Shown: positions 12,532-52,465 of the stretch, piece after piece
Numbering within the stretch: position 1 is the first letter of the stretch
Layout: each line of letters begins with the position of its first letter
Assembly: GCA_043814605.1 (NCBI GenBank)
Contig: JBDRJV010000002.1
Location: forward strand, 26,374 to 90,373
DNA length: 64,000 nt
Reading direction: 5' to 3'
DNA from: Candidatus Omnitrophota bacterium
GTDB taxonomy: Bacteria > Omnitrophota > Gorgyraeia > B26-G9
Notes under the pieces: model-generated
The model's database searches: none
Told to the model about the DNA's origin: nothing
What the model saw: only the letters and a program-made list of their open reading frames with translations
Translations under genes and position numbers: made by a program

Positions 12532-12651
12532 TTAAATTTTTTCCATTGGCTGATCACAGCAAACTAATTCTCCGCCGCCAACTTTTGTTACTGTAACCTC
12601 ATTCCCGCAGACATTACAACGGTATTTCTCGCCTATTTTCTCTACTGACAT
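12532..12651 (-). CDS. Desulforedoxin-like Fe(Cys)4 protein of 39 aa. It is not in the supplied ORF track.
   Basis: The translation MSVEKIGEKYRCNVCGNEVTVTKVGGGELVCCDQPMEKI shows the CxxC…GGG.LVCC motif of the desulforedoxin family and of the Dfx N-domain. Confidence 0.6.
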   Translation of the reverse strand: MSVEKIGEKYRCNVCGNEVTVTKVGGGELVCCDQPMEKI

Positions 12652-12675
12652 TTTACGCCCCCTTAGTTAATTAAC

Positions 12676-13398
12676 CTACCTTCTCCTTGTTTTGGCTAAT
12701 AATCTTAATATTTCAAGGTAAAGCCAAACCAACGTAACCATTAAGCCAAACGCACCGTACCATTCCATATATTTCGGAGCTCCGCTCTGTACCCCTTTTT
12801 CAATAAAATCAAAATCCAGCACCAGATTCAACGCAGCAATCACCACAACAAATAAACTAAATCCGATACCTAATGGCCCGCTGTCATAAATTAACGGTAT
12901 CTGGATTTTAAAAAAACTGAGAATCATACTAATGAAATAATAAACCGCAATGCCGCCGATTGCGGCAAAAACCCCCAAGCGAAAATTATCCGTAACTTTT
13001 ATTAATCTTGTCTTGTACACAAAAAGTAAAGAAAATAATGTGCCAAACGTCAGGCCTACTGCCTGTATTACTATTCCCGGATAAGTTTTTTCAAAAAATG
13101 CAGAAATCCCGCCCAGTAAAACCCCTTCAAAAACTGCATAAATCGGCGCAGTAACCTGTGCCCATTCTTTTTTAAAAATAGTCAGTATTGCCATAATCAC
13201 ACTGCCGATCATTGCCGGCCAGAATAACGGCATTAATTTCTGAGGTTCACTCCATATCCAGGATGCACTAATCAAAATAATAAAAAGCAAGGCAAAACTC
13301 TTGTTCGTTGTCCCCTGAATTGTCATTACCTCCGTAGAACCATAACTTCCTACATTTGAAAATACATCACTTCTTAAAGCCGGATTGCTTGTGCGCAT
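12676..13398 (-). CDS. Bax-inhibitor-1/YccA-family membrane protein (putative).
   Basis: 240 aa with seven predicted TM helices and a polar N-terminus. The layout resembles YccA/BI-1. Confidence 0.45.
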   Translation of the reverse strand: MRTSNPALRSDVFSNVGSYGSTEVMTIQGTTNKSFALLFIILISASWIWSEPQKLMPLFWPAMIGSVIMAILTIFKKEWAQVTAPIYAVFEGVLLGGISAFFEKTYPGIVIQAVGLTFGTLFSLLFVYKTRLIKVTDNFRLGVFAAIGGIAVYYFISMILSFFKIQIPLIYDSGPLGIGFSLFVVVIAALNLVLDFDFIEKGVQSGAPKYMEWYGAFGLMVTLVWLYLEILRLLAKTRRR

Positions 13399-13522
13399 GG
13401 TTTATCTCTCCTTTCTTTTAAGTACTAAAAAAATTTGCATTATCGAGTAAAAGTTTTATTTTTCTCTTTTACCCTATAAATTGTCTACTTTTATTCTCTG
13501 CGTTTTGTCCTGATTTTGATAT

Positions 13523-15454: not shown

Positions 15455-15474
15455 ATAACTAGTTTTGCTGGTTT

Positions 15475-18843: not shown

Positions 18844-20876
18844 ATAAAATAATCAAAATCTTGTTCGCGGCGTGTATGCCGTTTAATATTTATGATATGC
18901 GCCGGAGACCGCTGCGGATCTAATTCAATGTAACTTGTCGGCCCTTGCCAAATATATTTATCACCGCTTAAAAGATCATACGCTAAATATGACCGTTCTT
19001 TTTCAATCCCCAGTTCAGCCAGCGGCATTTGTAAATACCCGGTCTGAGTATGACGCGGATCAAGATTCACCACCACAAGAATAATATTTGAATAATCTGC
19101 GGTTGCCTTGTAATAACTTATTATAGAATCATTATTAACTTCACAAAATCTTATGTTTCGCGTAATTTGTAAAGCAGGATTTGTTTTGCGAATCTTATTG
19201 AGCCTGGCTAATACATCTTTTAAATGCCCGGTTTTATTCCAATCCCATTGTTTTATCTCATATTTTTCCGAGTTAAGATATTCTTCCCGGTTAGGAATTG
19301 CTTCGCAAACGCATAATTCAAACGCCGGCCCGTATATTCCGAAATTTGAAGAAAGGGTTGCCGCGAGAACCGCTCTGATAATAAAAGCCGGCCGGCCCCC
19401 ATATTGCAAGTGTTCCGGCAGAATATCCGGAGTATTGGGCCAAAAATTTGGACGGAAATATTCCGCAACTTCTGTTTGGGTTAATTCTGTTAAATATTCA
19501 ATAAATTCACGTTTTGTATTACGCCAGGTAAAATACGTATATGATTGGCTAAACCCTCCTTTTGCCAGACGATACATGATATTCGGACGGGTAAAAGCCT
19601 CGGCTAAAAATATTGTTTCCGGGTAATCACTTTTTATTTTTGAAATAAGCCAGTCCCAGAAGATAAATGGTTTTGTGTGCGGATTATCTACTCGGAAAAC
19701 CCGTACTCCCTGCTTTATCCAGAACATGACAATACTTTTTAATTCTTCCCAAAGATCTTGGACATTGTCAGTTTCAAAATTAATTGGTAAAACATCTTCA
19801 TATTTTTTGGGCGGATTCTCCGCATACTGGATCTGCCCATCGGGACGCCACTTAAACCAATGCGGATATTTCTGGACATAGGGATGATCCGGAGAACACT
19901 GATAAGCTAAATCTAAAGCCACTTCTAAATTATATTTTTTTACCTCATTAATAAAATGTTTAAACGATTGAATCGTCCCTAATTGAGGATGGATTGTTTT
20001 ATGCCCTCCCTCCTTTGCCCCAATCGCCCAAGGACAACCCGGTTCATTTTCTTTACATTTAACAGAATTATTTGCACCTTTTCTGTTAGTTTTACCAATC
20101 GGATGAATCGGCGGAAGATAAATAATATCAAATCCCATGCGGGCAATTTCCGGGATTAATTTTTCACAATCTTTTAATGAACCGTGTTCCCCCGGCTGCG
20201 CACCCCAAGAACGCGGAAAAAACTCATACCAGCTGCTAAAAAGTGCTAATTTCCTCTCTACATGAACTCTCAATTCTTTATCATAGGTAACACTCTCTTT
20301 AATATTAAGATTTTTCTGCATTATATTTAATAACTCATCCTTCATCAGAATCAAGGTGAGAATATTAACATCTTCACTTGCCTTTAGCTGATTAGAATAT
20401 GAATTAATAATTTTAAGTATTGATTTTTCTTTGATTCTTTTTTTTGTTTTCTCCAGAATCTGAATCCCTATTTTTAAATCTACAGCAATATCCTGTGCAG
20501 CATTAATCTTTTTCTTCAGATTATTGCGCCACGTACAAAATTCATCTATAAACCCGCGGATACTGTAATAATAATTTTCTTCCTTTTCTATAGTAAAAGA
20601 CCCAACCCAGCGATCATTGCCTAAAGGCTTCATATAAACTTCCTGCCACCCCTTTTCCTTGACCGTACGATAAAGAAGCACAGCCACAATCTCCTCATGT
20701 CCATCCGCAAAGATATTTGCCCGGACAACAACACTTTCTCCGACTGTTCTTTTAATAGGAATCAATCCTGTATCGATTTCAGGGGAAACTTTTTCAATCA
20801 TAACCCGTGAGAAAAAATTAACCTTTTTTTTAGGCCCATTTTTTTTATCCGCGGGAATATTAGTCCGTTTGGGCAT
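18840..20876 (-). CDS. glgE: Alpha-1,4-glucan:maltose-1-phosphate maltosyltransferase GlgE (GH13_3).
   Basis: The GlgE N-domain pattern (…VSPEIDTGLIPIKRTVGESVVV…NDRW) plus a GH13 catalytic core. It overlaps the treS start by 4 nt. An internal Met at about 20801 is an alternative start. Confidence 0.85.
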   Translation of the reverse strand: MPKRTNIPADKKNGPKKKVNFFSRVMIEKVSPEIDTGLIPIKRTVGESVVVRANIFADGHEEIVAVLLYRTVKEKGWQEVYMKPLGNDRWVGSFTIEKEENYYYSIRGFIDEFCTWRNNLKKKINAAQDIAVDLKIGIQILEKTKKRIKEKSILKIINSYSNQLKASEDVNILTLILMKDELLNIMQKNLNIKESVTYDKELRVHVERKLALFSSWYEFFPRSWGAQPGEHGSLKDCEKLIPEIARMGFDIIYLPPIHPIGKTNRKGANNSVKCKENEPGCPWAIGAKEGGHKTIHPQLGTIQSFKHFINEVKKYNLEVALDLAYQCSPDHPYVQKYPHWFKWRPDGQIQYAENPPKKYEDVLPINFETDNVQDLWEELKSIVMFWIKQGVRVFRVDNPHTKPFIFWDWLISKIKSDYPETIFLAEAFTRPNIMYRLAKGGFSQSYTYFTWRNTKREFIEYLTELTQTEVAEYFRPNFWPNTPDILPEHLQYGGRPAFIIRAVLAATLSSNFGIYGPAFELCVCEAIPNREEYLNSEKYEIKQWDWNKTGHLKDVLARLNKIRKTNPALQITRNIRFCEVNNDSIISYYKATADYSNIILVVVNLDPRHTQTGYLQMPLAELGIEKERSYLAYDLLSGDKYIWQGPTSYIELDPQRSPAHIINIKRHTRREQDFDYFM

Positions 20877-38656: not shown

Positions 38657-40585
38657 TTATTTTTTTTCTATCAGGAAAGAAATTGTAAAGGTTGCGCCTT
38701 TGCCTTGTTCACTCTCTACTTTAATTTGAGCATTATGGTTTTCAACAATCCGGTAACAAATCGATAATCCTAATCCCATACCGCCATCAGGAGCCTTAGT
38801 TGTATAAAAAGGATTAAAAATATAGGATATTTGACTTTGAGGAATACCGCCGCCTGTATCCTGAAAAACCACAATTAAATTTTGCTGATCTTCACTTAAA
38901 AACACTTTAATATTTATTTGTTTATCTCTACTCTTATTCAATAAAATAGCATCTTTGGCATTGGTGATTAAGTTTATAAATAATTGTTGTAATTGATTTG
39001 CATCCGCACTAATCATTGGTAAATTATCCATAATTTCTTTACGTACTTCTATCTCACTCCTTTTTAGCTGTGCCTCAAGCAGCATTAAAGCATTATCAAT
39101 AGGATTTGTAATAATCAAATCTTTTAATTCAAATTCTGATTTTTTTGCAAAAAAACGTACATTTTTTATAATCGAATCCATTCTATCTGCCTGATAAATA
39201 ATCTGCTCCAAATCATTGCGCAGCGGGCTATCTCCTGGCAAATCCATTAAGATTGTCTGTGTAAACCCTCTGATTCCGGTTAAAGGCTGGGCTAATTCAT
39301 GGGAAATGCCTGCTGCCAACTGCCCCATTGCTGCCATTTTACCGGATTGAATCAATTCTTGTTGTACTTGTTTAAGATCAGCAAAAGCTTTTTTTAGCAG
39401 TTTTTCCGCTTTCTTTTTTTCAGTTATATCATGAGAAATAAATAAAATCTGATTTTTATTTAAAATATTGATTGTGCTCGAAAAATAACTCCATTGGCCG
39501 GATTTATGTTTTAAACGGAATTCTCTGACTTCTGAGAATTTTTCAATTCTTTTTTGAAAAAAAGCTTTTATTTTAAGCTTCAAATATTTTTTTAATAAAG
39601 GCATTGAATCCGTTATGTCCTGGGGATGCACAAGATCATATGCAGTTTTTTTCAATAATTCCCCGGAGGCATATCCTAATTTTTTTTCATAGGAGGGGCT
39701 TGCATATAAAAATTTTAACTTTAAATCAAAAGATACTATACAAATCAAATCATCTGTGTTTTCGGTGATTAATCGATATTTTTTTTCGCTTTCTAACAAT
39801 GCTTTTTCCACCAGTTTTTGCTTTGTAATATCACGTGCCGCTCCGACTATCCCAATTACTCCATCATGCTCATCTTTAACCGGAGACTCATCAATCTCCA
39901 GAAAAATATTCTCTCCATCTTTCTTTTTAACTTCCAGAATGTAAACCGGCTGTCTTTGCCCTGTTTTTATTGCTTTTTCTGTATTTTTAATCCCGGCTTC
40001 ATTTATCGGATTACCCGTGGTTAATTCTGTCCAGTTTATCTTCATTTCCTCGACGCTATATCCCATAATTTCTTGACACTGCGGACTGATATAGGTAAGA
40101 ACATTATCCGGATCATGCATATAAAAAATTTCATTGCTATGCTCAACTATATTGCGCAGTTTTGTTTCACTGTTTCTCAATCTATTCTCTGCAGATTTAA
40201 GTTCAGTAATATCATTCAGAAAAGTTAAGAGAACCGGCTCCCCTTGCAAGCTAATTATATGCGCTGAAAATAACCCCTGGCGGATATCGCCAGATTTGGT
40301 TTTTATTTCTAATATATAATTTTTAACATTTAAATTCTGTTTGATTTTTTCTTTAATTTCTTCTCTTATTGCATAATTTTGAAATATCCCCAATTCTTTA
40401 GAAGTTTTTCCAATTACCTCAAACTTTTCATAGCCTAATACACTTAAAAACTCCTCATTTACATCAATAAATTTTCCTTTTTCCAAAGTGCTTAGCGCCA
40501 TAAGCGCAACACTGGAATTGAAAATTTTAGAGAATTTTTCCTCACTCTCTTTTAAAATTTCATACACATCTTTATTTTTATCCAT
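38657..40585 (-). CDS. Cytoplasmic multi-PAS sensor histidine kinase.
   Basis: Three PAS-like modules, H-box ISHELAQPLTGIRGF and HATPase_c (QDTGGGIP…GMGLGLSICYRIVENH). No TM segments. Confidence 0.8.
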   Translation of the reverse strand: MDKNKDVYEILKESEEKFSKIFNSSVALMALSTLEKGKFIDVNEEFLSVLGYEKFEVIGKTSKELGIFQNYAIREEIKEKIKQNLNVKNYILEIKTKSGDIRQGLFSAHIISLQGEPVLLTFLNDITELKSAENRLRNSETKLRNIVEHSNEIFYMHDPDNVLTYISPQCQEIMGYSVEEMKINWTELTTGNPINEAGIKNTEKAIKTGQRQPVYILEVKKKDGENIFLEIDESPVKDEHDGVIGIVGAARDITKQKLVEKALLESEKKYRLITENTDDLICIVSFDLKLKFLYASPSYEKKLGYASGELLKKTAYDLVHPQDITDSMPLLKKYLKLKIKAFFQKRIEKFSEVREFRLKHKSGQWSYFSSTINILNKNQILFISHDITEKKKAEKLLKKAFADLKQVQQELIQSGKMAAMGQLAAGISHELAQPLTGIRGFTQTILMDLPGDSPLRNDLEQIIYQADRMDSIIKNVRFFAKKSEFELKDLIITNPIDNALMLLEAQLKRSEIEVRKEIMDNLPMISADANQLQQLFINLITNAKDAILLNKSRDKQINIKVFLSEDQQNLIVVFQDTGGGIPQSQISYIFNPFYTTKAPDGGMGLGLSICYRIVENHNAQIKVESEQGKGATFTISFLIEKK

Positions 40586-40679
40586 ATATTCTGTATCTGA
40601 CGTTTACCTCTAATTAAATTTAAAATATTCCTTTAATTATATTTTACTTTTATTTACACTAAAGAACAAGCTGAAATCA

Positions 40680-41609
40680 TCATCCAACCTGTATCTGCTC
40701 ACTTAACAGTTTGCCTTGGTAAGAGTTGCGTGCTTTTAATTCATTTTCTATATCTTTTATAACTTTTTGTTTATCATTTATCCAGGTTGGCCCGATGAGC
40801 ACATTTTCCCGGGTATTAGAAACCAACCTCATAATTACATATTCTTTATTTAAATTTTCTAAAAAATCACAAACTAAATCCACATATTCTGTTTTTGATA
40901 AAAGTTTAAACTTTTCTTTTTTATAAATTTCTTCAAACTGAGTGTTTTTTAAAATATGAAAAATATGAAATTTTATACCGTTAATCGGCATTTGGCTGAG
41001 TTTTTTAGCGCTTTGCATCATGTCCGCCTTTGTTTCTCCAGGCAGGCCTAAAATTACATGCACAGCTATCTTAATATTTCTTTTTGCTGTTTGCTCAATT
41101 GCGCTTTGACTTTGGCTGAATGTATGCTGGCGGTTTATTAATTTAAGGCTTTTTTCGTGTATTGTCTGAACCCCATACTCGATCCAAACTTCATACTTAT
41201 CTGTATAACTTTCAATCAAATCCAATTTTTCCGCATCAATACAATCCGGACGGGTAGAAATTGACAAACCAATAATTTCTGAAAATTCACGAATCACATC
41301 ATAAACATTCTTTAATTGTAGAACATCTGCATGAGTATTAGAGGCATTTTGAAAATAAGCAAAAAATTTTTCTGCCTTAAACCTCTTGCGGTAATATTCC
41401 ATGGAGGTAAGAATTTGGGTTTTAAGATTAACCTTTGTATCTTTAAAATTAGCAAAGCCGGCTTCATTACAAAAAAAACACCCTTTTGTTCCTTTACTTC
41501 CATCACGGTGCGGGCAACTAAACCCGGCATTTAAGCTGATTCGATGGACACGCGCTGAAAATTTCTGGCGTAAATAATTATTAAAAGAATAATAAGGCAC
41601 ATTTTCCAT
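40680..41609 (-). CDS. Radical-SAM protein, TIGR01212/YhcC family.
   Basis: Characteristic N-terminal SCPHRDGSKGTKGCFFC cluster. Confidence 0.75.
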   Translation of the reverse strand: MENVPYYSFNNYLRQKFSARVHRISLNAGFSCPHRDGSKGTKGCFFCNEAGFANFKDTKVNLKTQILTSMEYYRKRFKAEKFFAYFQNASNTHADVLQLKNVYDVIREFSEIIGLSISTRPDCIDAEKLDLIESYTDKYEVWIEYGVQTIHEKSLKLINRQHTFSQSQSAIEQTAKRNIKIAVHVILGLPGETKADMMQSAKKLSQMPINGIKFHIFHILKNTQFEEIYKKEKFKLLSKTEYVDLVCDFLENLNKEYVIMRLVSNTRENVLIGPTWINDKQKVIKDIENELKARNSYQGKLLSEQIQVG

Positions 41610-41620
41610 AATTTTTTATA

Positions 41621-42370
41621 TTATATTAAATCCCGCTGGGTTATGATTTCATAAGCAAACACTGTTGCAGCCATACTCACATTCAAAGAAAGCTTTGCGC
41701 CCTGCATCGGAATAAATACTTGCAAATTTAAAATCTTTTGAATTTCTGATGATATTCCGGTTGTCTCAGCCCCCAGAACCAGGGCTAGAGGAAATTTTAA
41801 TTTAGCTTTACTGATTTCTTTGGCTTTAAAATCAACCACTCCTCCGATAATAAAATAGCCTTTTTGTCCGGCAATTTTTATGGCAGCTAACAAATCCGAA
41901 GCTTTCGAAACCAAAACATGGTTTTCTCCGCCCTGGGCTACATGCATTACTGCTTCGGTAACAGAACAAGCTTCTTTTTCCGGAAGAATAATTGAAAAAT
42001 TGCCAAAACAAGCCAGACTTCTGATAATTAACCCCAAGTTTTGCGGATCATTTATCCGGTCTAAAAAAACCAAAGTTGTCCTATTTTTTAATGCTTTATC
42101 CAGCAACAAATCATATTCTGTATATTTAAAATCATTAACCCGCGCAATAATTCCCTGGATATTTTTTGCCCGTTTCATCTGTTCGATCTGACGCACAGAA
42201 ATATATTCGTAAGGAATTTTTTTAAGTTTTATTATTTTTTCTAAATCTTCAAAGTTAGAATTATCCTGCAGGAAAATTTTTTGTATGCTTCCAGGATTCT
42301 GCCTTAAGCGTTCCCGGATTGATTTTTTCCCGTACAAAAGCATATATTTCTTTACTTTATTTTTTACCAT
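41621..42370 (-). CDS. rlmB: SpoU/TrmH-family RNA 2'-O-methyltransferase (RlmB-like).
   Basis: N-terminal L30e-like domain and C-terminal SPOUT motifs (LVLGAETTGIS…IPMQG…SLNVSMAATV). Confidence 0.75.
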   Translation of the reverse strand: MVKNKVKKYMLLYGKKSIRERLRQNPGSIQKIFLQDNSNFEDLEKIIKLKKIPYEYISVRQIEQMKRAKNIQGIIARVNDFKYTEYDLLLDKALKNRTTLVFLDRINDPQNLGLIIRSLACFGNFSIILPEKEACSVTEAVMHVAQGGENHVLVSKASDLLAAIKIAGQKGYFIIGGVVDFKAKEISKAKLKFPLALVLGAETTGISSEIQKILNLQVFIPMQGAKLSLNVSMAATVFAYEIITQRDLI

Positions 42371-43396
42371 TTATTCTTTTCGATTAAATGCCAAATCAAT
42401 AAATTTTTGAATTAATTTATTATAAGTAATTCCGGCTTTTTCCGCAGACTGGGCAATTTCATCATTTTTAGCTAAACACGGATTAGCATTAGCTTCTAAA
42501 ATATAAACTCTCCCCTTAGGAGAAATTCTAATATCAAAGCGTGCATAAGCTTGTATATTTAAAACATGATACGCACGTTTGCAGGTCTCCGTTACTGTTT
42601 TTTCTAAACCTTCGGCTAATTTGCCGGCAAAAACATTTTTAATCCCCCATTTTTTCCGGTAATTATTATCCCATTTCGCTTTATATGTAGCAATCCGCGG
42701 TTCGTCTTCCTGTGTAATTGTGCCAAATTTCATTTCCCGCAAAGGCAGGACTTTAATTCTCCGCTGGCCTAAAACACTCACATAAAATTCCCGGCCTTCA
42801 ATATACTCTTCGGCAATTGCATCCATTTTCATTTTTTCGTGTGTAAATTTAACCCGTTCAATCAAAGACGCCTCATTATCCACAACCGAAGCTAAAGAAA
42901 TACCACGGGATGCTTCATCACATAAAGGTTTAACAACTAAAGGAAGTTTTAATTTTTTCGGCAGCCAGATCTTATGTTCACGGTGAAATGCATGAAACCG
43001 CGGGACTCTAATCCTGTGAAACCTTAATATTTTTTTATGTAATGCTTTATCATTACAAATAAGCAATGTTTTTGCCGAAGCTCCGGTATAAGGAATTTCG
43101 AGCATTTCCAGCAAAGCCACAAAATTTTTATCCAGAGATGACTTATTATCAAAAACTTCAGCCAGATTAAAAATTACATCCGGCGGATTTTCTTTTACTT
43201 CCTCAAGTAAAATATTTATATCACGGCAAATACCTAATACGCTAACTTTATGTCCATTAGCCAGAAGAGCTTCGTACACATTAGCCTCAGTATTCCAATC
43301 AATATCCTGAAATTCATCGATAAACTTATAGCCTCGAGGCTGCGGAACAGGTGTATCAAAAACAATTAATACGTTAAGTTTTTTCTTCATCTGCAA
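42371..43396 (-). CDS. ATP-grasp enzyme, D-alanine–D-alanine-ligase-like.
   Basis: EEYIEGREFYVSVLG and AYARFDIRISPKGRVYILEANANPC resemble the Ddl C-terminal ATP-grasp motifs. The N-domain is atypical. Confidence 0.5.
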   Translation of the reverse strand: MQMKKKLNVLIVFDTPVPQPRGYKFIDEFQDIDWNTEANVYEALLANGHKVSVLGICRDINILLEEVKENPPDVIFNLAEVFDNKSSLDKNFVALLEMLEIPYTGASAKTLLICNDKALHKKILRFHRIRVPRFHAFHREHKIWLPKKLKLPLVVKPLCDEASRGISLASVVDNEASLIERVKFTHEKMKMDAIAEEYIEGREFYVSVLGQRRIKVLPLREMKFGTITQEDEPRIATYKAKWDNNYRKKWGIKNVFAGKLAEGLEKTVTETCKRAYHVLNIQAYARFDIRISPKGRVYILEANANPCLAKNDEIAQSAEKAGITYNKLIQKFIDLAFNRKE

Positions 43397-43421
43397 TTTT
43401 TTTAGTAAATAAAATTATTAA

Positions 43422-43811
43422 TCATTCCTGGTTAAAGATTTTATTGATTTGATCAATCAAAACCTGAGCATCAAACGGCTTTGTCACAAAGCCGGCTATG
43501 CCTTGGCGCTCAATTAATATTTTCAACTGCTGATTATCCGTTCCGGTCATAATAATCACCGGTACTTTTGGGATAATCTCTTTAATTTTATTCATAACCA
43601 TAAGCACGGTAAGGCCGTCGGCTTCTGGCATCATTACATCTAAAAGCACTAAGTCCGGCTTTTCAAAAATTAGCTTACTCAGGCATTCTTTACCGCTATG
43701 AGCTACAATTGTTTCGAATTTATTTGCTCTTAGACGTGATTCCACTAACTTTGTCAAATTCTGATCATCATCTACCACTAATATTTTCTTGGCCATTTTT
43801 CCCCTCCTCAA
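43422..43811 (-). CDS. Single-domain CheY-like response regulator.
   Basis: 129 aa, receiver domain only (ILVVDDDQNL…DLVLLDVMMP…IIMTG…K). Confidence 0.8.
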   Translation of the reverse strand: MRRGKMAKKILVVDDDQNLTKLVESRLRANKFETIVAHSGKECLSKLIFEKPDLVLLDVMMPEADGLTVLMVMNKIKEIIPKVPVIIMTGTDNQQLKILIERQGIAGFVTKPFDAQVLIDQINKIFNQE

Positions 43812-43904
43812 TAAGCCCGCGACAGCGGGCGAATTAATCTCGAACCCTTTTTGGGTAAGAGACCTTTAATTAAAATATAAGAAAAACCTTAAATAACTAA
43901 TTCA

Positions 43905-44058
43905 TCAATCTATCAATTTAGCAATCTAGCAATTTAACAGTTTAACAGTTTATCAATTTATCAATTTAACAATATAACAATATAACAATTTAACAATTTA
44001 ACAATTTAACAATTTAACAATTTAACAGTTTAACAATTTAACAATTTAACAGTTTAAT
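43905..44058. repeat. Tandem array of about 19 copies of the 8-bp unit AATTTAAC and variants.
   Basis: Directly readable units: AATCTATC, AATTTAGC, AATTTAAC x many, AGTTTAAC, AATATAAC. The same unit recurs at 54806-54872. Confidence 0.8.
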
Positions 44059-45088
44059 ACTTCCTGTTCTTTTCTCCTCTTAACCTTCCGGTATACATAT
44101 AATTCATCATTAAACTGGTAATATATGCCGTAATTTTTAAAATCATTATACTTTCCGTATCTTTAATAATTAAATCTAAATCCTTAGATCTTTTAATTAA
44201 GGTTTTAACCAATCCATCAACAATATATTTTTTCTCACCTGTCCAGGTTGAAACACTATTAATTATTTGTTCTCTATATTTGTGAATTACTTTGTAGGCT
44301 TTTATGTGTTTTTTGTCTTCTTCAGTATTTAAACAAAAAATTCGTTTTAAATTTGTATCGTGAAAATCAAGAAAATCTTCCGCATAGGTATGTTTTTTTT
44401 TCTTATAATAATTTGCTAATGTTGAGGTTAGTTTTGCCGCCTGCCAGAATTTTTTCCCTTTTTCAACCCAGGGGTCTTTATCTTTTATTTGCGCCATTAA
44501 CTTATCTACATATTTAAGCTTTTGTAAAGCTCCCCAGCCCTTATATTGATTTTGCCAGTCAATATCCGGACAAAGCCAAACTGCAAACGTTTCGGCAAAA
44601 TCTTCATCCGGATGGTACTGTGCATAATAATCTTCCAAATGCCTGACAAAATTCTTACTGTAGAGCCGGAAACGGTAAGTATCCTTATATTCCTGATCAA
44701 ACGCACCAAAAAAATTTTGCCAGTTTGTTTTTTTGTACAACTTATAGGCATAATTTATAGCATGGCCTGTTTCGTGGCGCAATAACTGCATACACCAGGT
44801 TTTTGTCCCGCCTTCGACACTCAGCATCATTTGTTTTTCTAATTTCATCAAAGCCGGATGCGCCAGGAAAAAGGGAATACCCACAACCGGTTCGCCGTCC
44901 GGCGCAAGCCACTCATCCGCTAAATAACATTGCGGTTTGAATTTTATGCTTTTTGCCTGAAGTTCGTGATAAAGTTTATCCACACATTCCGCTAACCAAC
45001 ACTGATCTATGCTCAACGGTAAATCCCGAATCCTGGTTTTCAGCAAATCTACTTCGGGAACATTATCTAAATTTATTTTTTGTGCCAT
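44054..45088 (-). CDS. Putative zinc-dependent hydrolase (HExxH protein).
   Basis: 344 aa with a single HETGH motif (LLRHETGHAINYAY). No signal peptide and no confident family assignment. Confidence 0.45.
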   Translation of the reverse strand: MAQKINLDNVPEVDLLKTRIRDLPLSIDQCWLAECVDKLYHELQAKSIKFKPQCYLADEWLAPDGEPVVGIPFFLAHPALMKLEKQMMLSVEGGTKTWCMQLLRHETGHAINYAYKLYKKTNWQNFFGAFDQEYKDTYRFRLYSKNFVRHLEDYYAQYHPDEDFAETFAVWLCPDIDWQNQYKGWGALQKLKYVDKLMAQIKDKDPWVEKGKKFWQAAKLTSTLANYYKKKKHTYAEDFLDFHDTNLKRIFCLNTEEDKKHIKAYKVIHKYREQIINSVSTWTGEKKYIVDGLVKTLIKRSKDLDLIIKDTESIMILKITAYITSLMMNYMYTGRLRGEKNRKY

Positions 45089-45142
45089 TATTTTTTCACT
45101 GTTGCTGTTTTTTCTATTAACTTCTACTGGGTCCAGAATCTG

Positions 45143-45547
45143 TTACCAAAATTTTCCGCGAGGAGGAATTACTTCTTCTTCCTCCTCTTCTTCCTCTTCT
45201 TCCTCTTCTTCTGTTTCCGTACCATGATAAGAACAGACCACTACTGTCTGATAACTAGGATGAGATGAAGCATATGACTCCCAGGCATAAACTCCGCCGT
45301 TAGGACAACTCGGCATTTTGCTTAAATATCCTTCATCCAATAATTCCTGAAAAGTATCAGCATGCTGTTTTGTGTGGGATAAATACATGGTCTCTGCATT
45401 TTGTATCACTGCCCGGTTCTCAACACAAACACTCCTTTCTGCCGTACGCCGTCCGGAGAGAACTGCTAAAAAAGAATTTGCGCCCAAAAGCACAATAATT
45501 GCTAAAACAACCATAATTTCAATAAAAGTAAATCCCTTATTATTCAT
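45143..45547 (-). CDS. Type IV pilin/pseudopilin-like protein with a C-terminal poly-glutamate tract.
   Basis: Prepilin class-III N-terminus KG|FTFIEIMVVLAIIVLL and Cys-containing head domain. Fifteen consecutive Glu are encoded by a GAAGAG repeat at about 45172-45216. Confidence 0.75.
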   Translation of the reverse strand: MNNKGFTFIEIMVVLAIIVLLGANSFLAVLSGRRTAERSVCVENRAVIQNAETMYLSHTKQHADTFQELLDEGYLSKMPSCPNGGVYAWESYASSHPSYQTVVVCSYHGTETEEEEEEEEEEEEEVIPPRGKFW

Positions 45548-45549
45548 CT

Positions 45550-46107
45550 TTATTCCTGAGGATCATTTAATCTGACAATAACCGGCGGAGAATTGATCAC
45601 ATTGCAATAAATTTCGGTAATCTCAGTATTATGTTCATACGGCGACGGGCAGGCATAAACTCTAACATCATCCCGTTCTTTAAAAATATACGCTTTTTTA
45701 CTTACCGGGCAAATAAGTTCTTTATTTAAATATCTTCCTTTAACTAATTCATCCATTTCCTGCGGAAATTTTCCCTGATCTGCATAAAATAAATCTAAAG
45801 CTTTTCTTAAACGCCATAAATTAAGAAGGCAGCCGTCAATTTTAATATCAAACTCAGACCTTTCTCCCCTAGCCCAGGGCTGCGGTGTACGCAAAGGGCT
45901 GCTTCTACTAAATAATTTTCCGCACAAAGAAAAAACTAAGACCGTAATTATCATCAAGCCGACAATCAAAGATATTCTTCTTCCTTTTAAATTAACTGCT
46001 GATGATTTTTTTTGCTCGATTATTTCTTCCTGAGCTTCGGCTTGTTTTTTTGATTTAAAATCAGAAAATATATTTTTCAATTCCTGATCTATATTATGAT
46101 CATTCAT
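45550..46107 (-). CDS. Hypothetical bitopic membrane protein, possibly pilus-associated.
   Basis: Cytoplasmic acidic N-terminus, one TM helix, and a periplasmic Cys-containing domain. It sits 3 nt after the pilin gene. Confidence 0.4.
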   Translation of the reverse strand: MNDHNIDQELKNIFSDFKSKKQAEAQEEIIEQKKSSAVNLKGRRISLIVGLMIITVLVFSLCGKLFSRSSPLRTPQPWARGERSEFDIKIDGCLLNLWRLRKALDLFYADQGKFPQEMDELVKGRYLNKELICPVSKKAYIFKERDDVRVYACPSPYEHNTEITEIYCNVINSPPVIVRLNDPQE

Positions 46108-46151
46108 GTTTTTTTGGTTCTACCTTTTACTTTTCACCTTAATGATTTTTT

Positions 46152-48347
46152 TTATTTACGTTTTAAAAGCAGTTTGACCCGAGCTAACAACCTGACTCCG
46201 TCAAAAGGTTTGGCAATATAATCATCAGCTCCGGCATCTAATCCTTCAATCTCACTACTTGTATCTTTTTTAGCGGTAAGGAGAATAATCGGAATCCCCG
46301 CTGTTTTTAATTCAGACCGGATCCTGCGCGTTGCTTGAAATCCGTCCATAACCGGCATCATTACATCCATAATTAATAAATCCGGCGCTGTTCTCATACA
46401 GGCTTCAAAAGCTTCCTGGCCGTTTTCCGCTTCAATAATATCAAACCCTGCACTTTTTAAGCGCATACCCACAAGCTTACGAATATTTTTTTCATCATCT
46501 GTAACCAGAACCAGTGGTTTTTCCCGCAGAGGTTTTTGTTTAATAAGTTCTGTCTCAATCTGTTTCGGTTTTCCTTCTGGTTTTACTGCTGGTTTTACTT
46601 CTGGCTGGCCCTCAACTAAAGATTTTTCTTCAACCTGTTCTAAAACTGAAGTCTGCGTAACCTCTTCCAGAGTTGTTATCCCTAAAGCAACTTTCTCTAT
46701 CCCCGCCTCAGCCAAACTCCTTAACCCGGAATTTTGCGCCATAAGCGCAATTTCTGTTTGGGTTGCATTTTCTGAAACAAGAGCTTTAATTTTTTTCGTA
46801 AATTCAAATAGTTCCACAATCGCTACGCGGCCTAAATATCCGCTAAAACTGCATTCCGCACACCCCTTACCGTGATAAAATTTAGAGATACTGTATTTTT
46901 TAATAAAATTGGCAAATTTTTCCTGTAATTTTTTATCCGGGTTATATCCTTCTTTACAATGCGGGCAAATAACCCGCACCAAACGCTGCGCAATAATCAA
47001 AACTACAGAAGAAGCAATTAAATATGGCTCAAGGCCAATATCCAGAAGGCGGCTGATTGAAGATACCGCGTCATTAGTGTGCAATGTGGAAAAAACCAGA
47101 TGCCCGGTTAACGCAGCTTTAAACGCAACCTCTGCGGTCTCTGAGTCCCGGATTTCCCCGACTAAAATCACATCCGGGTCCTGGCGCAAGATACTACGCA
47201 GTCCGGCAGCAAAAGTAACATCTTTTTTCGGGTTAATCTGAATCTGGTTAATCCCTTCCATTAAATATTCAATCGGGTCTTCAACTGTAACAATATTTTT
47301 TGTCTCATTTTTTATATAAGCCAAGGCCGCATAAAGCGTGGATGTTTTCCCGGACCCTGTCGGCCCGGTAACTAACACCATTCCCTGCGGCCGGGTAAAA
47401 ACTTCTTTCATTATTTCCAATTCATTCGGAGCAAAACCTAATGTATCTATTTTAATTTTGGCTTTTTGCGGGTCTAATACGCGAAATACAATTTTTTCTC
47501 CGTAATAAGCCGGGATAATGGAAATTCTCAAATCAATTTTCCGGTTATTATACATTATATCTGCCCGGCCGTCTTGCGGTTTTCTTGTCTCCGCAATATC
47601 AAGATTAGAAAGAATTTTTACACGGGCTGTAAATTGCGGATACATTTCACTGGGAATTTTCATAATATTTTTTAAATAACCGTCCACGCGGTAACGTACA
47701 TCCACAAAATTTTCTTGCGGCTCAACATGAATATCCGTCGCCCGGTTACGGATAGCGTCGCTTAAAATAACTTTGACTAATCTGACCACCGGAGAACGTT
47801 CTAAATCAAATCTATTTGCATCAGTTATTTTGCCATCCGATGATTTATCATCCTTGATTACCTCTAAAGAAGAATCATCAACAATATTTTTTAATAAATC
47901 ATAGAGCGAATCATCAATATGATAGTGTTTTTCAATCTGGGTGGCAATATCTGTTTTACTGGCCAATACCGGCTGAATCGGGAATTTAACTAATAACCTT
48001 AAATCATCTAAAGCCACAATGTCCTGGGGATTACTCATAGCCAGAAGCAAATTGTTATTTTCCGTACGGATGGGGAAAACTCCGTAACGCCTGGCTAAAT
48101 CATAGGAAATTACTTTTATTGCATGATCATCTATTGTTTGGCCATTTAAGTTAATGATCGGCATTTTAAAAAAGCGCGATAAAACTTCCATCATTTTCTC
48201 TTCTGCAATAAATCCCATTTCTACTAATACATCTTGGATCGGGATTTTTGCACCGAGTTGACGCTGGCGCGCTTCTTGTAACTGAGCATCCGTAATAAGC
48301 TTTTCCTCAATTAAAACAGTTATTAATGTTTTAAACACAAGCTTCAC
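46152..48347 (-). CDS. GspE/PilB-family secretion/pilus ATPase fused to a C-terminal receiver domain.
   Basis: T2SSE_N-like N-domain, Walker A GPTGSGKTST, the VGEIRD motif and the His-box TLHTND. The C-terminal ~130 aa is a REC domain (LVLVTDDEKNI…DLLIMDVMMP…ILLTAKKD). Confidence 0.85.
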   Translation of the reverse strand: MKLVFKTLITVLIEEKLITDAQLQEARQRQLGAKIPIQDVLVEMGFIAEEKMMEVLSRFFKMPIINLNGQTIDDHAIKVISYDLARRYGVFPIRTENNNLLLAMSNPQDIVALDDLRLLVKFPIQPVLASKTDIATQIEKHYHIDDSLYDLLKNIVDDSSLEVIKDDKSSDGKITDANRFDLERSPVVRLVKVILSDAIRNRATDIHVEPQENFVDVRYRVDGYLKNIMKIPSEMYPQFTARVKILSNLDIAETRKPQDGRADIMYNNRKIDLRISIIPAYYGEKIVFRVLDPQKAKIKIDTLGFAPNELEIMKEVFTRPQGMVLVTGPTGSGKTSTLYAALAYIKNETKNIVTVEDPIEYLMEGINQIQINPKKDVTFAAGLRSILRQDPDVILVGEIRDSETAEVAFKAALTGHLVFSTLHTNDAVSSISRLLDIGLEPYLIASSVVLIIAQRLVRVICPHCKEGYNPDKKLQEKFANFIKKYSISKFYHGKGCAECSFSGYLGRVAIVELFEFTKKIKALVSENATQTEIALMAQNSGLRSLAEAGIEKVALGITTLEEVTQTSVLEQVEEKSLVEGQPEVKPAVKPEGKPKQIETELIKQKPLREKPLVLVTDDEKNIRKLVGMRLKSAGFDIIEAENGQEAFEACMRTAPDLLIMDVMMPVMDGFQATRRIRSELKTAGIPIILLTAKKDTSSEIEGLDAGADDYIAKPFDGVRLLARVKLLLKRK

Positions 48348-48351
48348 CTTT

Positions 48352-49104
48352 TTAATTTAATATTTCTTTTATTTTTGCCAATAATTCTTCGGCACTAAAA
48401 GGCTTGGTCAAATAACCGCTAATTTCCTCTGTCTCTAAGAGACTTCTTATCTCTTCCCCGGCACAAGCACTTAAAATTAATACGGGTATTTTAGGAATTG
48501 ATTCATCCCCTTCACTGGATTGCCTTAGTTCTTTTAGTGTAATCAAAGTGCTGTAACCATCCATTTCCGGCATCATTACATCGAGTAAAATTAAATCCGG
48601 TTTAGCCGCCATGATTTTTTCAATACATTCAACCCCGTTACTAGCAGTGATTACATCATAACCATTCGCTTTTAACCTGAACTCCATTAATTTAACTACA
48701 TGCGCCTCATCATCAACAATGAGTATTTTTTTCCTACGGGAAGGGGCCGCAATCTCAGAAGAAAACTTATTAATAATTTTATCAATATCTTCTAATTCAC
48801 AAGGCTTACTTAAATATTCATCTACACCAACGGATTTAGCAAAAAAATCCTGCATGCCGGAATATCCGGTTAAAATCACGGTTTTTGTCCTGATTTTATT
48901 TTCTTTGATAAACTTCACCAGCTCCATCCCGGTCATTTCCGGCATATTATGATCAATAAAAGCGACATCATAATTATTTTCTTTAATCATTTTTTTTGCC
49001 TGCAAACCATTCTCGGCAATCTCAATAGTGTGCCCCTTCCGCGTTAAGTAAGTATTTAACAAATCTGTAATTATTTTAGTATCATCGGCAACTAATATTT
49101 TCAT
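48352..49104 (-). CDS. Dual-receiver (REC-REC) response regulator.
   Basis: Two complete receiver domains (ILVADDTKII…FIDHNMPEM…; ILIVDDEAHV…LLDVMMPEMDG…). No output domain. Confidence 0.8.
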   Translation of the reverse strand: MKILVADDTKIITDLLNTYLTRKGHTIEIAENGLQAKKMIKENNYDVAFIDHNMPEMTGMELVKFIKENKIRTKTVILTGYSGMQDFFAKSVGVDEYLSKPCELEDIDKIINKFSSEIAAPSRRKKILIVDDEAHVVKLMEFRLKANGYDVITASNGVECIEKIMAAKPDLILLDVMMPEMDGYSTLITLKELRQSSEGDESIPKIPVLILSACAGEEIRSLLETEEISGYLTKPFSAEELLAKIKEILN

Positions 49105-49146
49105 AAGTTCACCTTTTTTTATCTGACAATTATTAATAAAGAATTA

Positions 49147-51363
49147 TCATAACAAATATCTGACTAATTTTTTAAGTTGTGATAATTCCATGGGTTTGCC
49201 AATAACCGGAATAGCTTTTTTCTTAACATAATCACTTATCTTTTCAAACTCAATAGAATATCCGGAAACAATCATAATTGGGATATCTTTGGTTTTCATG
49301 TCTTCTTTAAGCCGGCCAATTACTTCATACCCGTTCATTTTAGGCATTTGCATGTCGAGGATAATTAAGTCCGGAATATTATTATCGATTACTTTAAAAA
49401 CATCCTCACCGTTATTAACCGCATTCAGATTATTATATCCAATATTTTTTAGAGATTTTTGCATAAAAAATACAATGTCCATACTGTCATCGGCAATAAG
49501 AATTTTCTTTTTCAAGCGTTCTGATTTTTCGCTAACCATTGACCGGCAAGCTAGCGCAAAAAGTTCTTCGGCGTTGGATGCAGCTTTAGGAAAACTAGCC
49601 CAGCCGTAAGAAAAGTCCAGCTCCAGTTCATCATTAAATTTAAAAATCTCATTTTTTACAATCCTTTTTAAGCGTTCCTGCCAAGCAGCTGCATCATGCG
49701 AGGCAATATCAGCAATTAGAATAATCTGTCTTAATTCCAGAATCAGAAACGGTTCTACGGACCCGATTATTTGTTTAAGTTTGTAAAAAATTTCGTATAA
49801 AACTGTCGTAATTTTATTATCCCCCTCCTGTTTTATAATTTCCTCAGTCGGATTTAAAGACAAGACAAAAACAGCACACTCCCTTTCCTCTTTACTAGAT
49901 TTATTAATTAATTGTCCCAGCGATTCCAAGACAAGCTGTTTTTGCGTAGTTTGTTTCGGCAGGGTAAAAATAAATTTTGTGCCTTTATTTATTTCGCTTT
50001 CTACCCAAATTTGGCCATGATGTAATTCAATTATTCCTTTACAAATTGCTAATCCCAAGCCAGTCCCTTTTTCTCCCGGTCCATATTGCCGGTCAAATTG
50101 TTTAAATTTATCAAAAACACTCACAATCTCATCCGGCGTTAATCCTTTGCCTGTATCAATAACCGCGCATTGGATCATTTCCCCCTGATCACTAACAGAA
50201 ATTTCAATTTTCCCTTTTTGCGTAAATTTTAAGGCATTGCCCATAAGATTAGTCAGCACTTGGATTATTTTATCGCGGTCTGCATTGACCTCAATTTGAT
50301 CGCCGGAAAAACTTGTGATCATTTCTATTTTTTTCTCTTTTAACCTTGGCGTAAAAGTATTTTGTACGCTTTTGATCACGCTAATCATGTCAAAATTATC
50401 TTTATATAATTCAACTTTTTGTGCCTCGAGCTTGGATATATCTAATAAATCATTAATGATTCTCATTAAACGGTCTACATCCTGTAAACAGATTAAAAGA
50501 AAATCTCTTTGCTCAGCTGTGGTCGGGCCTAATATTCCGTCTAAAATTTGAGAAACAACTTCCCGGATAGTAGTTAAAGGAGTCCTTAGTTCATGAGAAA
50601 CAGTACTGATTAAATCATCCTTAAGCTGTTCATTTCTTTTACTTTCAGTAATATCTTTAATTACATGTATAATTTTAATCATTTCTTGTTTTTCATTTAG
50701 AATAGGCGTGACCGCTATTTCCACATATTTTTTTAAACGTGAATCATAGGTTTGAATAAATTCTTGTTTTTTGCTTTTTAATACTTTTTTATACGGGCAA
50801 TTTTTTATGCATTCATTTGTTCCGTGAACAACTGTATGGCAAATTAATCCTCGACACTCCTCAACCCCAATATTATAAGCACGCGCAAAAGCCTGATTTA
50901 CCATTAGCAAACGGCCTTCCTGATCCATAACCGAAACTATATCGGTTAAAGAATTAAATGTATTTTCTAAATTCTCCGCAAGCTGAATAATTTTGCCTTC
51001 TTCTCTTTTACGCTCGCTAATATCCTCAAAACATTCCACCACGCCAATAATCTGACCATTTTTATCCGTCAAAACCTCGGCTTTTTTAAATATTAAACAA
51101 AATTTTCCGTCTTTTCTTTTAATTATGCATTCTTTATTTTTTATCGGTGTTTTGATATCTTTAGCAAAAATCTGGCAGACTTTCTGACAGCTTTGCTCAA
51201 TAAAAAAATCACATTTTTTCCCGATAGCTTCCTCTTTAGTATATTGAGTGATTGCTTCGGCTTGATTGTTCCAATGGGTAATAATTTTATTATTATTTAA
51301 ACAATACACACCATAAGGCATAGTTTCAAACATTAATTCATAATATAAATTTTTATTTTCCAT
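49147..51363 (-). CDS. Hybrid PAS sensor histidine kinase with a C-terminal receiver.
   Basis: Two PAS modules, H-box VSHELRTPLTTIREV, HATPase_c (DTGKGLTPDE…GTGLGLAICKG), an uncharacterised middle domain and a REC domain (ILIADDSMDI…LIILDMQMPKMNG). Confidence 0.8.
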   Translation of the reverse strand: MENKNLYYELMFETMPYGVYCLNNNKIITHWNNQAEAITQYTKEEAIGKKCDFFIEQSCQKVCQIFAKDIKTPIKNKECIIKRKDGKFCLIFKKAEVLTDKNGQIIGVVECFEDISERKREEGKIIQLAENLENTFNSLTDIVSVMDQEGRLLMVNQAFARAYNIGVEECRGLICHTVVHGTNECIKNCPYKKVLKSKKQEFIQTYDSRLKKYVEIAVTPILNEKQEMIKIIHVIKDITESKRNEQLKDDLISTVSHELRTPLTTIREVVSQILDGILGPTTAEQRDFLLICLQDVDRLMRIINDLLDISKLEAQKVELYKDNFDMISVIKSVQNTFTPRLKEKKIEMITSFSGDQIEVNADRDKIIQVLTNLMGNALKFTQKGKIEISVSDQGEMIQCAVIDTGKGLTPDEIVSVFDKFKQFDRQYGPGEKGTGLGLAICKGIIELHHGQIWVESEINKGTKFIFTLPKQTTQKQLVLESLGQLINKSSKEERECAVFVLSLNPTEEIIKQEGDNKITTVLYEIFYKLKQIIGSVEPFLILELRQIILIADIASHDAAAWQERLKRIVKNEIFKFNDELELDFSYGWASFPKAASNAEELFALACRSMVSEKSERLKKKILIADDSMDIVFFMQKSLKNIGYNNLNAVNNGEDVFKVIDNNIPDLIILDMQMPKMNGYEVIGRLKEDMKTKDIPIMIVSGYSIEFEKISDYVKKKAIPVIGKPMELSQLKKLVRYLL

Positions 51364-51718: not shown

Positions 51719-52465
51719 ATGTATAAAGTAGTATTGTTACGTCACGGCGAAAGTATTTGGAACAAGGAAAATAAATTCACCGGATGGACAGATGTTGATC
51801 TTTCTGAAAAAGGGCTGGAAGAAGCCAAACAAGCTGGTATTTTACTCAAAAACGAAGGATATACATTTGACATTGCGTTTACAAGTGTACTTAAACGAGC
51901 TATCCGCACCTTGTGGATTACCCTCGATGAAATGGATTTAATGTGGATTCCTGTACACCGCTCCTGGCGGCTTAACGAAAGACATTACGGTGCATTACAA
52001 GGATTGAACAAGGCAGAAACTGCAGTCAAATACGGAGATGAAAAAGTGCTAATCTGGCGCCGCAGTTATGAGACTCCGCCGCCAGGATTGGAAAAAGAAG
52101 ATCCGCGCTGGCCAGGCCATGACCCCAGATACGGGGACATGAAAGAAAGAGAAATCCCGCAAACCGAGTGCCTTAAAGATACAGTTACCCGGTTTTTGCC
52201 TTACTGGCATGAAACTATTGCCCCGGCTATTCGGTCTGGAAATAATGTTTTAATTGCTGCACACGGTAACAGCCTGAGAGCATTAGTAAAATATTTAGAT
52301 GATATTTCAGAAGATGAAATTGTAAAATTAAATATCCCGACCGGAGTTCCTCTGGTCTATGAGTTAGCTGAAAACCTCAAACCGATAAAGCATTATTATC
52401 TTGGGGATCAGGCAGCAATTCAAAAAGCAATGCAGGCTGTGGCTAATCAGGGAAAAGCAAAATAA
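51719..52465 (+). CDS. gpmA: 2,3-bisphosphoglycerate-dependent phosphoglycerate mutase.
   Basis: [27 protein letters not shown] catalytic-His motif and the full dPGM fold. A GGGAG ribosome-binding site lies 8 nt upstream. Confidence 0.9.

Follow-up and report, generated by a model that had tools for sequence, protein, structure and literature searches.

The 64,000-nucleotide stretch of Candidatus Omnitrophota contig JBDRJV010000002.1 analyzed here (the window) encodes PilB-REC, a 731-residue protein in which a pilus-type hexameric ATPase is joined at its own C terminus to a receiver domain of the kind used in two-component signaling. We consider it probable, from the comparisons described below, that PilB-REC works as an extension ATPase of the PilB class in a type IV filament machine and that it is controlled in cis by phosphorylation of the fused receiver. 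The fusion is, as far as sequences can tell, real, conserved, and typical of a large protein family: when 5.8 billion proteins were searched and the best 120 matches taken, every one of them (120/120) combined MshEN, T2SSE, and REC domains, with 50 to 68% identity to PilB-REC. The named homologs among these 120 come mostly from Omnitrophota, with one each from Firestonebacteria and Elusimicrobia. An ATPase with its own C-terminal receiver was also the core of the original prediction, and on this point it held, since Pfam places all three domains in one protein and the arrangement is conserved across the family. From the N terminus to the C terminus, the protein is divided as follows.

47802-48347, minus strand: residues 1-182, MshEN-type N-terminal region with degenerate cyclic di-GMP (c-di-GMP) motifs (Pfam MshEN/T2SSE_N, PF05157, 2.8e-20, residues 60-146)
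46653-47801, minus strand: residues 183-565, T2SSE hexameric ATPase core (Pfam T2SSE, 4e-134)
46518-46652, minus strand: residues 566-610, flexible linker rich in Pro, Lys, and Glu (low confidence in the AlphaFold2 model)
46155-46517, minus strand: residues 611-731, predicted canonical receiver (Pfam Response_reg, 2.4e-28)

Conservation was read from an alignment of 121 sequences, PilB-REC and its 120 best homologs. In the ATPase, the Walker A residue K334, the Walker B residue E398, H423 of the His box, and the four zinc-site cysteines C461, C464, C496, and C499 are invariant (121/121). The receiver is kept with similar strictness: the phospho-acceptor D661, D618 of the acidic pair, and T691 are present in all 121 sequences, K713 is present in 120, and D617, the other member of the acidic pair, is present in 119. 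The Asp, Lys, and Thr residues of a working receiver are therefore in place, and the C-terminal domain is predicted with confidence to be a canonical, phosphorylatable one. Since the catalytic residues of both domains are invariant or nearly so, the alignment places both the receiver and the ATPase under purifying selection. An AlphaFold2 model built with 89 family sequences (mean predicted local distance difference test [pLDDT] score, 87.9; predicted template modeling score, 0.83) folds residues 612-729 into the five strand-helix units of a (beta-alpha)5 receiver at a pLDDT of 88 to 97, with the ATPase core mostly above 90. The pLDDT falls below 50 at residues 573-583 and 587-604 of the linker, whose length ranges from 11 to 51 residues across the family, with a median of 20.

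By several comparisons, the motor part is closest to PilB. The best NCBIfam model is type_IV_pilB (TIGR02538), matched at 620.5 bits over model positions 2-562 of 564, whereas the GspE model TIGR02533 reaches 565 bits (cutoff, 630) and ComGA reaches 267 bits. In the PDB, residues 10-569 match Geobacter PilB 5zfr best (9e-139), followed by Myxococcus 3jc8 and Thermus PilF (to 1e-131), and the solved type IVa pilus PilBs match PilB-REC better than GspE does. Orthologs from distant phyla would be expected to show about this degree of similarity in the core. The receiver region is aligned by no PDB homolog with an E value of <=1e-30.

In which genomic setting does this fused motor occur? Loci were collected by exact homolog look-up (L001 to L004, L085 to L087, L170, and L171), and a further 80 came from a metagenome scan with a family-specific N-terminal alignment; each was viewed within 10 kb on either side of the gene and annotated with hidden Markov models built from our own sequences, with Pfam spot checks. 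The fusion is carried by 52 of the 62 loci with a C-terminally complete PilB homolog. Nine of the other 10 loci hold the most distant sequences (about 31 to 37% N-terminal identity), and the remaining one (L093) has a split gene. Dereplication at 90% identity left 43 fused loci, of which 32 are informative in that they have at least 6 neighbors within five genes. Histidine kinase and/or REC genes lie near PilB-REC in 27 of these 32, a PilC gene lies directly downstream in the other 5, and no locus lacks both. Among the dereplicated fused loci with an upstream open reading frame (ORF), 28 of 40 have a small REC gene immediately upstream on the same strand. Other signaling genes recur beside the motor according to Pfam, including a stand-alone Hpt gene directly after PilB-REC (L089, L090, L098, and L101), a nearby CheC/CheX phosphatase (L106), and an adjoining cluster of CheR, CheW, a methyl-accepting chemotaxis protein, and CheA-REC (L143). 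Kinase and receiver genes are the partners conserved next to PilB-REC, a pattern consistent with phosphotransfer as the control on the motor.

In a neighbor-joining tree, all members linked to PilC fall into a single subclade, which lies within the majority linked to two-component genes. In 4 of these 5 loci, prepilin-motif genes follow PilC, and Pfam confirmed PilC as T2SSF (3e-56 and 6e-59) together with a GspG-type pilin. In four further lineages, pilin-type genes come after PilB-REC. Complete, canonical type IV pilus operons are therefore not the invariable home of these homologs, and the family is best read, from domain content and gene order, as one orthologous group of extension motors whose gene usually stands beside regulators and sometimes beside platform and pilin genes. 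The original prediction had noted the absence of PilC/GspF, secretin, and PilM/N/O genes and proposed that the machine is either minimal or uses parts encoded elsewhere. That absence is borne out, with PilT added, among the ORFs of 38657-51363 scanned with Pfam and NCBIfam. The minimal, novel machine is left unsupported, because ordinary PilB-PilC-pilin operons occur in the family. Given this nested subclade and a core that is ortholog-like to solved PilBs, the missing parts are most simply taken to be encoded elsewhere, outside the window.

Some side observations concern the family itself. In L123, L124, and L167, the PilB-REC frame is split into a 208-residue N-terminal ORF and a 536-residue T2SSE-REC ORF, and L093 is likewise split; the cause could be a frameshift or an error of assembly, or the gene could truly be split. 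A distant unfused PilB of ~570 residues in L157 (9616-12968) and L160 is also preceded by a small single-domain receiver gene, so that the partnership of receiver and PilB may be older than the fusion; in L157 this PilB is followed by PilC and a pilin. Three members (P0065, P0085, and P0094, the Firestonebacteria one included) have an extra zinc-ribbon-like CxxC...CxxC extension in their first ~45 residues, before MshEN. Genes for glycogen or alpha-glucan metabolism (phosphorylase, GH57, GH77, branching enzyme, and GlgC) recur a short way upstream of the REC-PilB-REC pair in several distant members (L004, 6972-9455; L085, 1-7508; L087, 3050-9548; L143, 5580-9528), and such genes are also present in the window (9994-20876); this may reflect gene order retained by descent, or carbon storage may be functionally linked to pilus signaling.

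The MshEN-T2SSE-REC architecture itself is visible in domain databases. A targeted full-text literature search, with incomplete coverage, brought up no account of a PilB or GspE with a fused receiver, and a 2024 review on PilB and its cofactors mentions receivers in partner proteins only. The fusion is apparently undescribed; regulation of PilB by two-component signaling is already known, and here it would act in cis.

In the window, PilB-REC lies within the following set of genes.

49147-51363, minus strand: hybrid sensor kinase (Pfam: two PAS domains, HisKA, HATPase_c, a degenerate GGDEF-like stretch at residues 476-615, and REC)
48352-49104, minus strand: REC-REC protein (Pfam)
46152-48347, minus strand: PilB-REC, whole gene (731 residues; Pfam MshEN, T2SSE, and Response_reg, with the E values given above)
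45550-46107, minus strand: bitopic protein BIT (185 residues; one transmembrane helix, no Pfam or NCBIfam match)
45143-45547, minus strand: prepilin-type pilin (134 residues; N_methyl 2.2e-6 and TIGR02532)
45173-45211, minus strand: imperfect GAA/GAG array coding for 13 Glu, seen in the sequence of the pilin gene
44054-45088, minus strand: HExxH protein, Peptidase_Mx-like (sub-threshold Pfam match)
43422-43811, minus strand: single-domain CheY-like receiver (Pfam)
42371-43396, minus strand: Ddl-like ATP-grasp ligase (Pfam Dala_Dala_lig_C, 1.3e-23)

All seven ORFs that the original prediction had joined into one contiguous, co-oriented unit, from the kinase to the CheY-like receiver, are found on the minus strand at the coordinates listed, and Pfam bears out their domain calls. 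Their common orientation is uninformative, as nearly all genes of the window are on the minus strand, and the HExxH gene belongs to a separate pair with the ATP-grasp gene, as described below. Promoter and terminator scans returned no more sites than in shuffled sequence, so operon structure can be judged by gene spacing alone: the REC-REC gene ends 4 bp before the start of PilB-REC, and the gaps are 44 bp between PilB-REC and BIT and 2 bp between BIT and the pilin.

The kinase at 49147-51363 was correctly described as a PAS-histidine kinase-REC protein, and it is likely, from its position and domains, to be the phosphodonor. The same hybrid architecture stands beside PilB-REC in L001, L170, L171, L004, and L085. 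Its GGDEF-like stretch, between HATPase_c and REC, scores 22.8 bits, just below the Pfam threshold, and lacks the GGDEF motif; such a stretch was also recorded in the PilB-REC-adjacent kinases of L001, L004, L170, and L171. The REC-REC protein retains the phospho-acceptor Asp in both receivers and sits where most relatives have a single small REC gene directly upstream of PilB-REC, and its second receiver (REC2) resembles these upstream RECs. The CheY-like receiver is a paralog of REC2 (44% identity). It is separated from the HExxH gene by a 242-bp gap and lies between the HExxH and ATP-grasp genes in the window genome only, being absent from that place in L001, L088, L170, and L171; within the PilB-REC pathway it may serve as an additional branch or as a phosphate sink. 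A second, non-hybrid kinase with three PAS domains is encoded at 38657-40585, three genes downstream of the ATP-grasp gene, and could be a further phosphodonor for the receivers of the locus.

If phosphorylation is the input to this motor, does c-di-GMP also act on it? MshE-type ATPases bind c-di-GMP through two tandem 24-residue motifs, RLGxx(L/V/I)(L/V/I)xxG(L/V/I)(L/V/I)xxxxLxxxLxxQ (Wang et al. 2016, PMC5013675). The relaxed search pattern of that study was applied to the 121 family members and matched none of them (0/121). Position 1 of motif 1 falls in a gap in 110 of 121 members, so that the Arg is missing, and Gly3 is replaced by I, L, T, or V; in motif 2, Arg1 is replaced by Pro in 113 of 121, Gly3 by Q or H, and Gln24 by V or I. 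Comparable substitutions occur in XpsE, which does not bind c-di-GMP, with the caution that imperfect motifs can still bind it, and MshEN domains can co-occur with REC (PMC5013675). Control by c-di-GMP through the N-terminal domain of PilB-REC was dropped as a candidate, the motif being matched by none of the 121 sequences. Because the motif is degenerate in every member, the comparison suggests that phosphorylation replaces rather than supplements the c-di-GMP input; the earlier proposal, that phosphotransfer gates the pilus rather than, or in addition to, c-di-GMP, is narrowed to its first half.

We propose that the adjoining kinase would sense a cue through its PAS domains and autophosphorylate and that the phosphoryl group would pass to Asp661 of the motor's receiver, directly or, in relatives that encode one, via the stand-alone Hpt. 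The free receivers (REC-REC and the CheY-like protein) might also take up the phosphoryl group in competition, either as sinks or as branch points. On phosphorylation, the receiver of the motor would change its conformation or dimerization, and this change would switch, toward activation or inhibition, the assembly of the hexamer, its ATPase activity, or its docking on the PilC platform. Pilus extension could thereby be gated without a second messenger or a separate adaptor.

Several points weigh against this reading. PilB-REC falls below the equivalog cutoff of its best model, TIGR02538 (620.5 versus 675.65 bits). PilC, PilM/N/O/Q, PilT, and prepilin peptidase were not recognized in the window, whose ORFs outside 38657-51363 were judged from N-terminal sequences alone and look housekeeping-like, and they were not found within 10 kb on either side of the gene in most family loci; any second, unfused PilB would fall outside the same view. 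Pfam and NCBIfam detected no Hpt in the window, though the kinase is hybrid, and both the sign of the regulation and the way it works are no more than inferred, from sequences and models. The original prediction had the ATPase wired directly into a phosphorelay, and of this the hybrid kinase and the terminal receivers are present; with no Hpt detected in the window, a phosphorelay is not demonstrated.

The two genes that follow PilB-REC are candidates for what the motor works on. The pilin begins with MNNKG, followed after the cleavage site by FTFIEIMVVLAIIVLLG, and so has the cleavage motif KG/FTFIE with a basic leader, Gly-1, Phe+1, Glu+5, and a hydrophobic alpha1-N helix. It matches N_methyl in Pfam (2.2e-6) and TIGR02532 (25.5 bits; cutoff, 16.3), and its profile matches PDB pilins at up to 9e-8; these marks identify it as a genuine pilin with a class III signal. 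The original prediction gave it 15 consecutive Glu at the C terminus. The prepilin motif and the Glu run are both real; the run comprises 13 residues (113-125 of 134) and is followed by the nine residues VIPPRGKFW. An exhaustive HMMER search with the tail-less pilin core returned 60 representative clusters at an E value of <=1e-10. The 55 members examined share a conserved core of ~110 residues ending in C-S-x-H, after which 6 have no tail, 23 (about 40%) have a short charged or low-complexity tail, and 26 have a long extension; the long extensions tested contain ConA-like lectin, CBM5/12, BspA-type leucine-rich repeat (LRR), or 3-keto-disaccharide-hydrolase-like domains. Several long proteins (P0253 with 744 residues, P0271 with 783 residues, P0287, P0289, P0294, and P0299) have 3 to 7 tandem matches to the pilin core and appear to be arrays of pilin-like domains. 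In the orthologs that follow PilB-REC, the tail takes the following states.

L088 and L170: tail absent
L001: mixed charge
L171: strongly basic
Window: 13 Glu in a tail of 26 residues
L097: 30 consecutive Glu

Judged from L001 alone, the tail would seem simply not conserved; with the 30-Glu run of L097, the tail position is better described as hypervariable. The Glu coding tracts are trinucleotide arrays, imperfect GAA/GAG in the window and nearly pure GAA in L097, so that slippage is probably the driver of tail variation. The poly-Glu tail is, on this comparison, real and recurrent, one repeat-driven variant that is neither conserved nor defining. It is absent from the closest orthologs, and the earlier view of a poly-Glu tail as a defining feature is not supported; the C-terminal module is hypervariable, and poly-Glu is one of the forms it takes.

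BIT, which is on record as a hypothetical protein of Candidatus Omnitrophota, was correctly called bitopic, with a single transmembrane helix predicted at residues 45-63. Because KGRR precedes this helix, the 44-residue N terminus, which has a conserved IFSDF..KKQ motif, is predicted to be cytoplasmic. The predicted periplasmic domain has 4 invariant Cys and a C-terminal SPPVI(E/V)R motif, and it aligns with the core of the neighboring pilin at an hhalign probability of 91.9% (E value, 6.9e-7). The prepilin cleavage motif G-F-T-x-x-E is absent from BIT, and the protein is predicted to be a pilin-like domain on an uncleaved membrane anchor. A profile search found no relatives in Pfam, NCBIfam, or the PDB, and the single-sequence AlphaFold2 model (pLDDT, 53.6) was too poor for a fold search. 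Orthologs of BIT were obtained only through PilB-REC loci, as a word-indexed homolog search returned the window protein alone. BIT and pilin orthologs follow PilB-REC in the window, L001, L088, L170, and L171, which form one clade, and in L097 from another branch (57% ATPase identity).

Are these two genes functionally tied to the motor? They may stand beside PilB-REC only by inherited gene order, with the poly-Glu run as neutral low-complexity drift. The pair is confined to the six loci just named, most members being without it, and among close orthologs the tail may be absent or even strongly basic, the Glu tract being a trinucleotide repeat, all of which such a reading would explain. We nevertheless regard it as unlikely, because two distinct branches of the tree have the pair after PilB-REC (57% and 64 to 70% ATPase identity), the gaps in the window are very tight (44 and 2 bp), other family members have different pilin genes downstream, and binding domains are grafted at the tail position in relatives. 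BIT and the modular pilin are probably a substrate or accessory of the PilB-REC motor, and BIT may reasonably be guessed to assist the motor as a pilin-like accessory anchored in the membrane. In a wider scenario, motor phosphorylation would have replaced c-di-GMP and adaptors in Omnitrophota and some neighboring candidate phyla, and the conserved cytoplasmic tail of BIT, an uncleavable component so far unrecognized, would contact the motor or its receiver and prime or anchor a filament of modular pilins whose charge is retuned by repeat slippage; taken as a whole, this is speculative and improbable.

A different machine would change the output of the switch. If PilB-REC drove a type II secretion-like or Com-like pseudopilus, the receiver would gate secretion or DNA uptake rather than adhesion or motility. 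The best NCBIfam matches of the pilin are to GspG (1.3e-6) and ComGC (5.2e-6), both far below cutoff, the major pilin of L125 has a weak T2SSG match, and the PilC-linked operons look like E-F-G plus minor pilins, without PilM/N/O/Q or PilT nearby. Against these resemblances, the ATPase is nearer to PilB than to GspE or ComGA in both NCBIfam and the PDB, no surveyed locus contains GspC/D/L/M genes, and the lectin, CBM5/12, and LRR modules of the pilin's relatives suit an exposed adhesive filament and not a periplasmic piston. A pseudopilus is accordingly improbable, and a PilB-driven type IV filament remains the preferred machine.

The weakest alternative is that PilB-REC is not a working motor at all. 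It would then be a signaling protein or phosphate sink, an ATPase-shaped response regulator with another output, as might be supposed from the 27 of 32 informative loci where kinase and receiver genes flank it and filament genes are missing from the five-gene range, and from the 121 otherwise unclassified neighbors, whose 25 commonest Pfam families include no PilM/N/O, secretin, PilT, PilZ, or GGDEF/EAL; Myxococcus PilB, too, reportedly has a signaling role in exopolysaccharide regulation. One paper is devoted to PilB as a signaling protein (PMC5544727). This is very unlikely in view of the catalytic, zinc-binding, and N-terminal features of a working PilB, which are invariant or nearly so, the ortholog-level identity to solved PilBs (and 43% to a Bacillota PilB), the nested subclade in which the fused gene is the sole ATPase gene of its PilB-PilC-pilin operons, and the pilin-type genes after PilB-REC in four further lineages.

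The genes downstream of the pilin appear to have a history of their own. The HExxH protein (HETGH) matches Peptidase_Mx (PF15887) at 22.1 bits, below the threshold of 27, while most of its close homologs carry a precomputed PF15887 match. It has 7587 homologs, the best 120 at 59 to 73% identity, in Omnitrophota, Aureabacteria, a metagenome-assembled genome of the PVC group, and Bacteroidota, and no relative was found in the PDB. The ATP-grasp gene at 42371-43396, its conserved partner, had been overlooked in the original prediction; the ligase scores below every NCBIfam Ddl cutoff and matches Ddl in the PDB at 8.5e-20. The two genes overlap in an Aureabacteria contig and another Omnitrophota genome with no PilB-REC nearby (L168, 6001-8038; L169, 6001-8033). 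The pair, whose genes usually overlap, also occurs in L001, L170, and L171, and it lies downstream of the pilin only in close relatives of the window; in L097 it does not directly follow the pilin, in a contig that ends ~2 kb further on. By this distribution, the HExxH and ATP-grasp genes are an independent, widespread two-gene module and not part of the PilB-REC unit. A RimK-like role, in which the ATP-grasp ligase and the HExxH protein make or trim the poly-Glu, was rejected: the run is DNA encoded and not terminal, the ligase is Ddl-like, and the pair is independent.

Across the window, the ORF at 51719-52465 is the only one of at least 110 residues on the plus strand, apart from short ORFs nested in minus-strand genes. 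GC skew is negative throughout positions 1-64000, with the cumulative skew dropping steadily, and together with the location of nearly all genes on the minus strand, this fits a single replichore with strong gene-strand bias. Rfam and tRNA scans of the whole window gave no matches.

In Pseudomonas, Myxococcus, and cyanobacteria, the CheY-like proteins that switch PilB on, off, or between poles act in trans and often via adaptors. PilB-REC offers a single-polypeptide model of such switching, in which one could measure directly how phosphorylation affects the assembly of the hexamer, its ATPase rate, and its binding to the platform. For Omnitrophota, a large, uncultivated, and partly host-dependent phylum, the family indicates that pilus deployment is tied to two-component sensing rather than to c-di-GMP, which bears on attachment decisions. 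Type IV filament biology gains further leads from the modular pilins, with their repeat-driven charged tails, and from the anchored pilin-like protein. As control logic, this is no new category; it is carried by a large and unstudied family that is found phylum-wide.

Among known systems, PilB-REC is most like the type IVa PilBs of Geobacter (5tsg/5zfr), Myxococcus (3jc8), and Thermus (PilF), with which it shares the MshEN-type region, the ASCE core, the Walker and His boxes, and the tetracysteine zinc site. It differs from them in the C-terminal receiver on a flexible linker and in a gene that usually stands with kinases and receivers instead of pilC and pilT. For cis control, the most plausible mechanistic template is the NtrC class of REC-AAA+ activators, in which a receiver is fused to a ring-forming ATPase and phosphorylation controls ring assembly and ATPase activity. 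NtrC belongs to another branch of the ATPase superfamily, its receiver is N-terminal whereas that of PilB-REC is C-terminal, and its output is transcription, not filament assembly.

The c-di-GMP-gated ATPases of the MshE type (PMC5013675) have the same N-terminal family and likewise build a regulatory domain into the motor, whereas in PilB-REC the regulatory input built into the motor seems to have shifted to the opposite end of the protein, onto a phosphorylatable receiver. Modular type IV pilins with a functional module grafted to the C terminus are known from Streptococcus sanguinis PilB and PilC (PMC8179133, PMC9934059), and the relatives of the window pilin share this layout; the graft in the window is only a 26-residue tail with 13 Glu, and the two groups of pilins are not closely related in sequence.

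The closest regulatory parallels are found in Synechocystis Tax1 and Pseudomonas Pil-Chp. In Synechocystis, PixL phosphorylates PixG and PixH, PixH serves as a sink, and the receiver of PixL itself modulates the kinase; PixG interacts with PilB1 and its D326A variant does not, from which the authors infer that only phospho-PixG binds the motor (PMC11181946). The ChpA-PilG-PilH proteins of Pseudomonas follow a similar logic (PMC11656802). Both systems comprise a kinase with its own receiver, a receiver that acts on the motor, and a sink receiver, and the genes of the window can be cast alike as the hybrid kinase, PilB-REC, and the free receivers. Most PilB-REC loci use PAS kinases in place of CheA, whereas L143 has a full Che cluster, and in PilB-REC, in contrast to both known systems, the effector receiver is covalently joined to the motor, without PATAN or any other adaptor domain.

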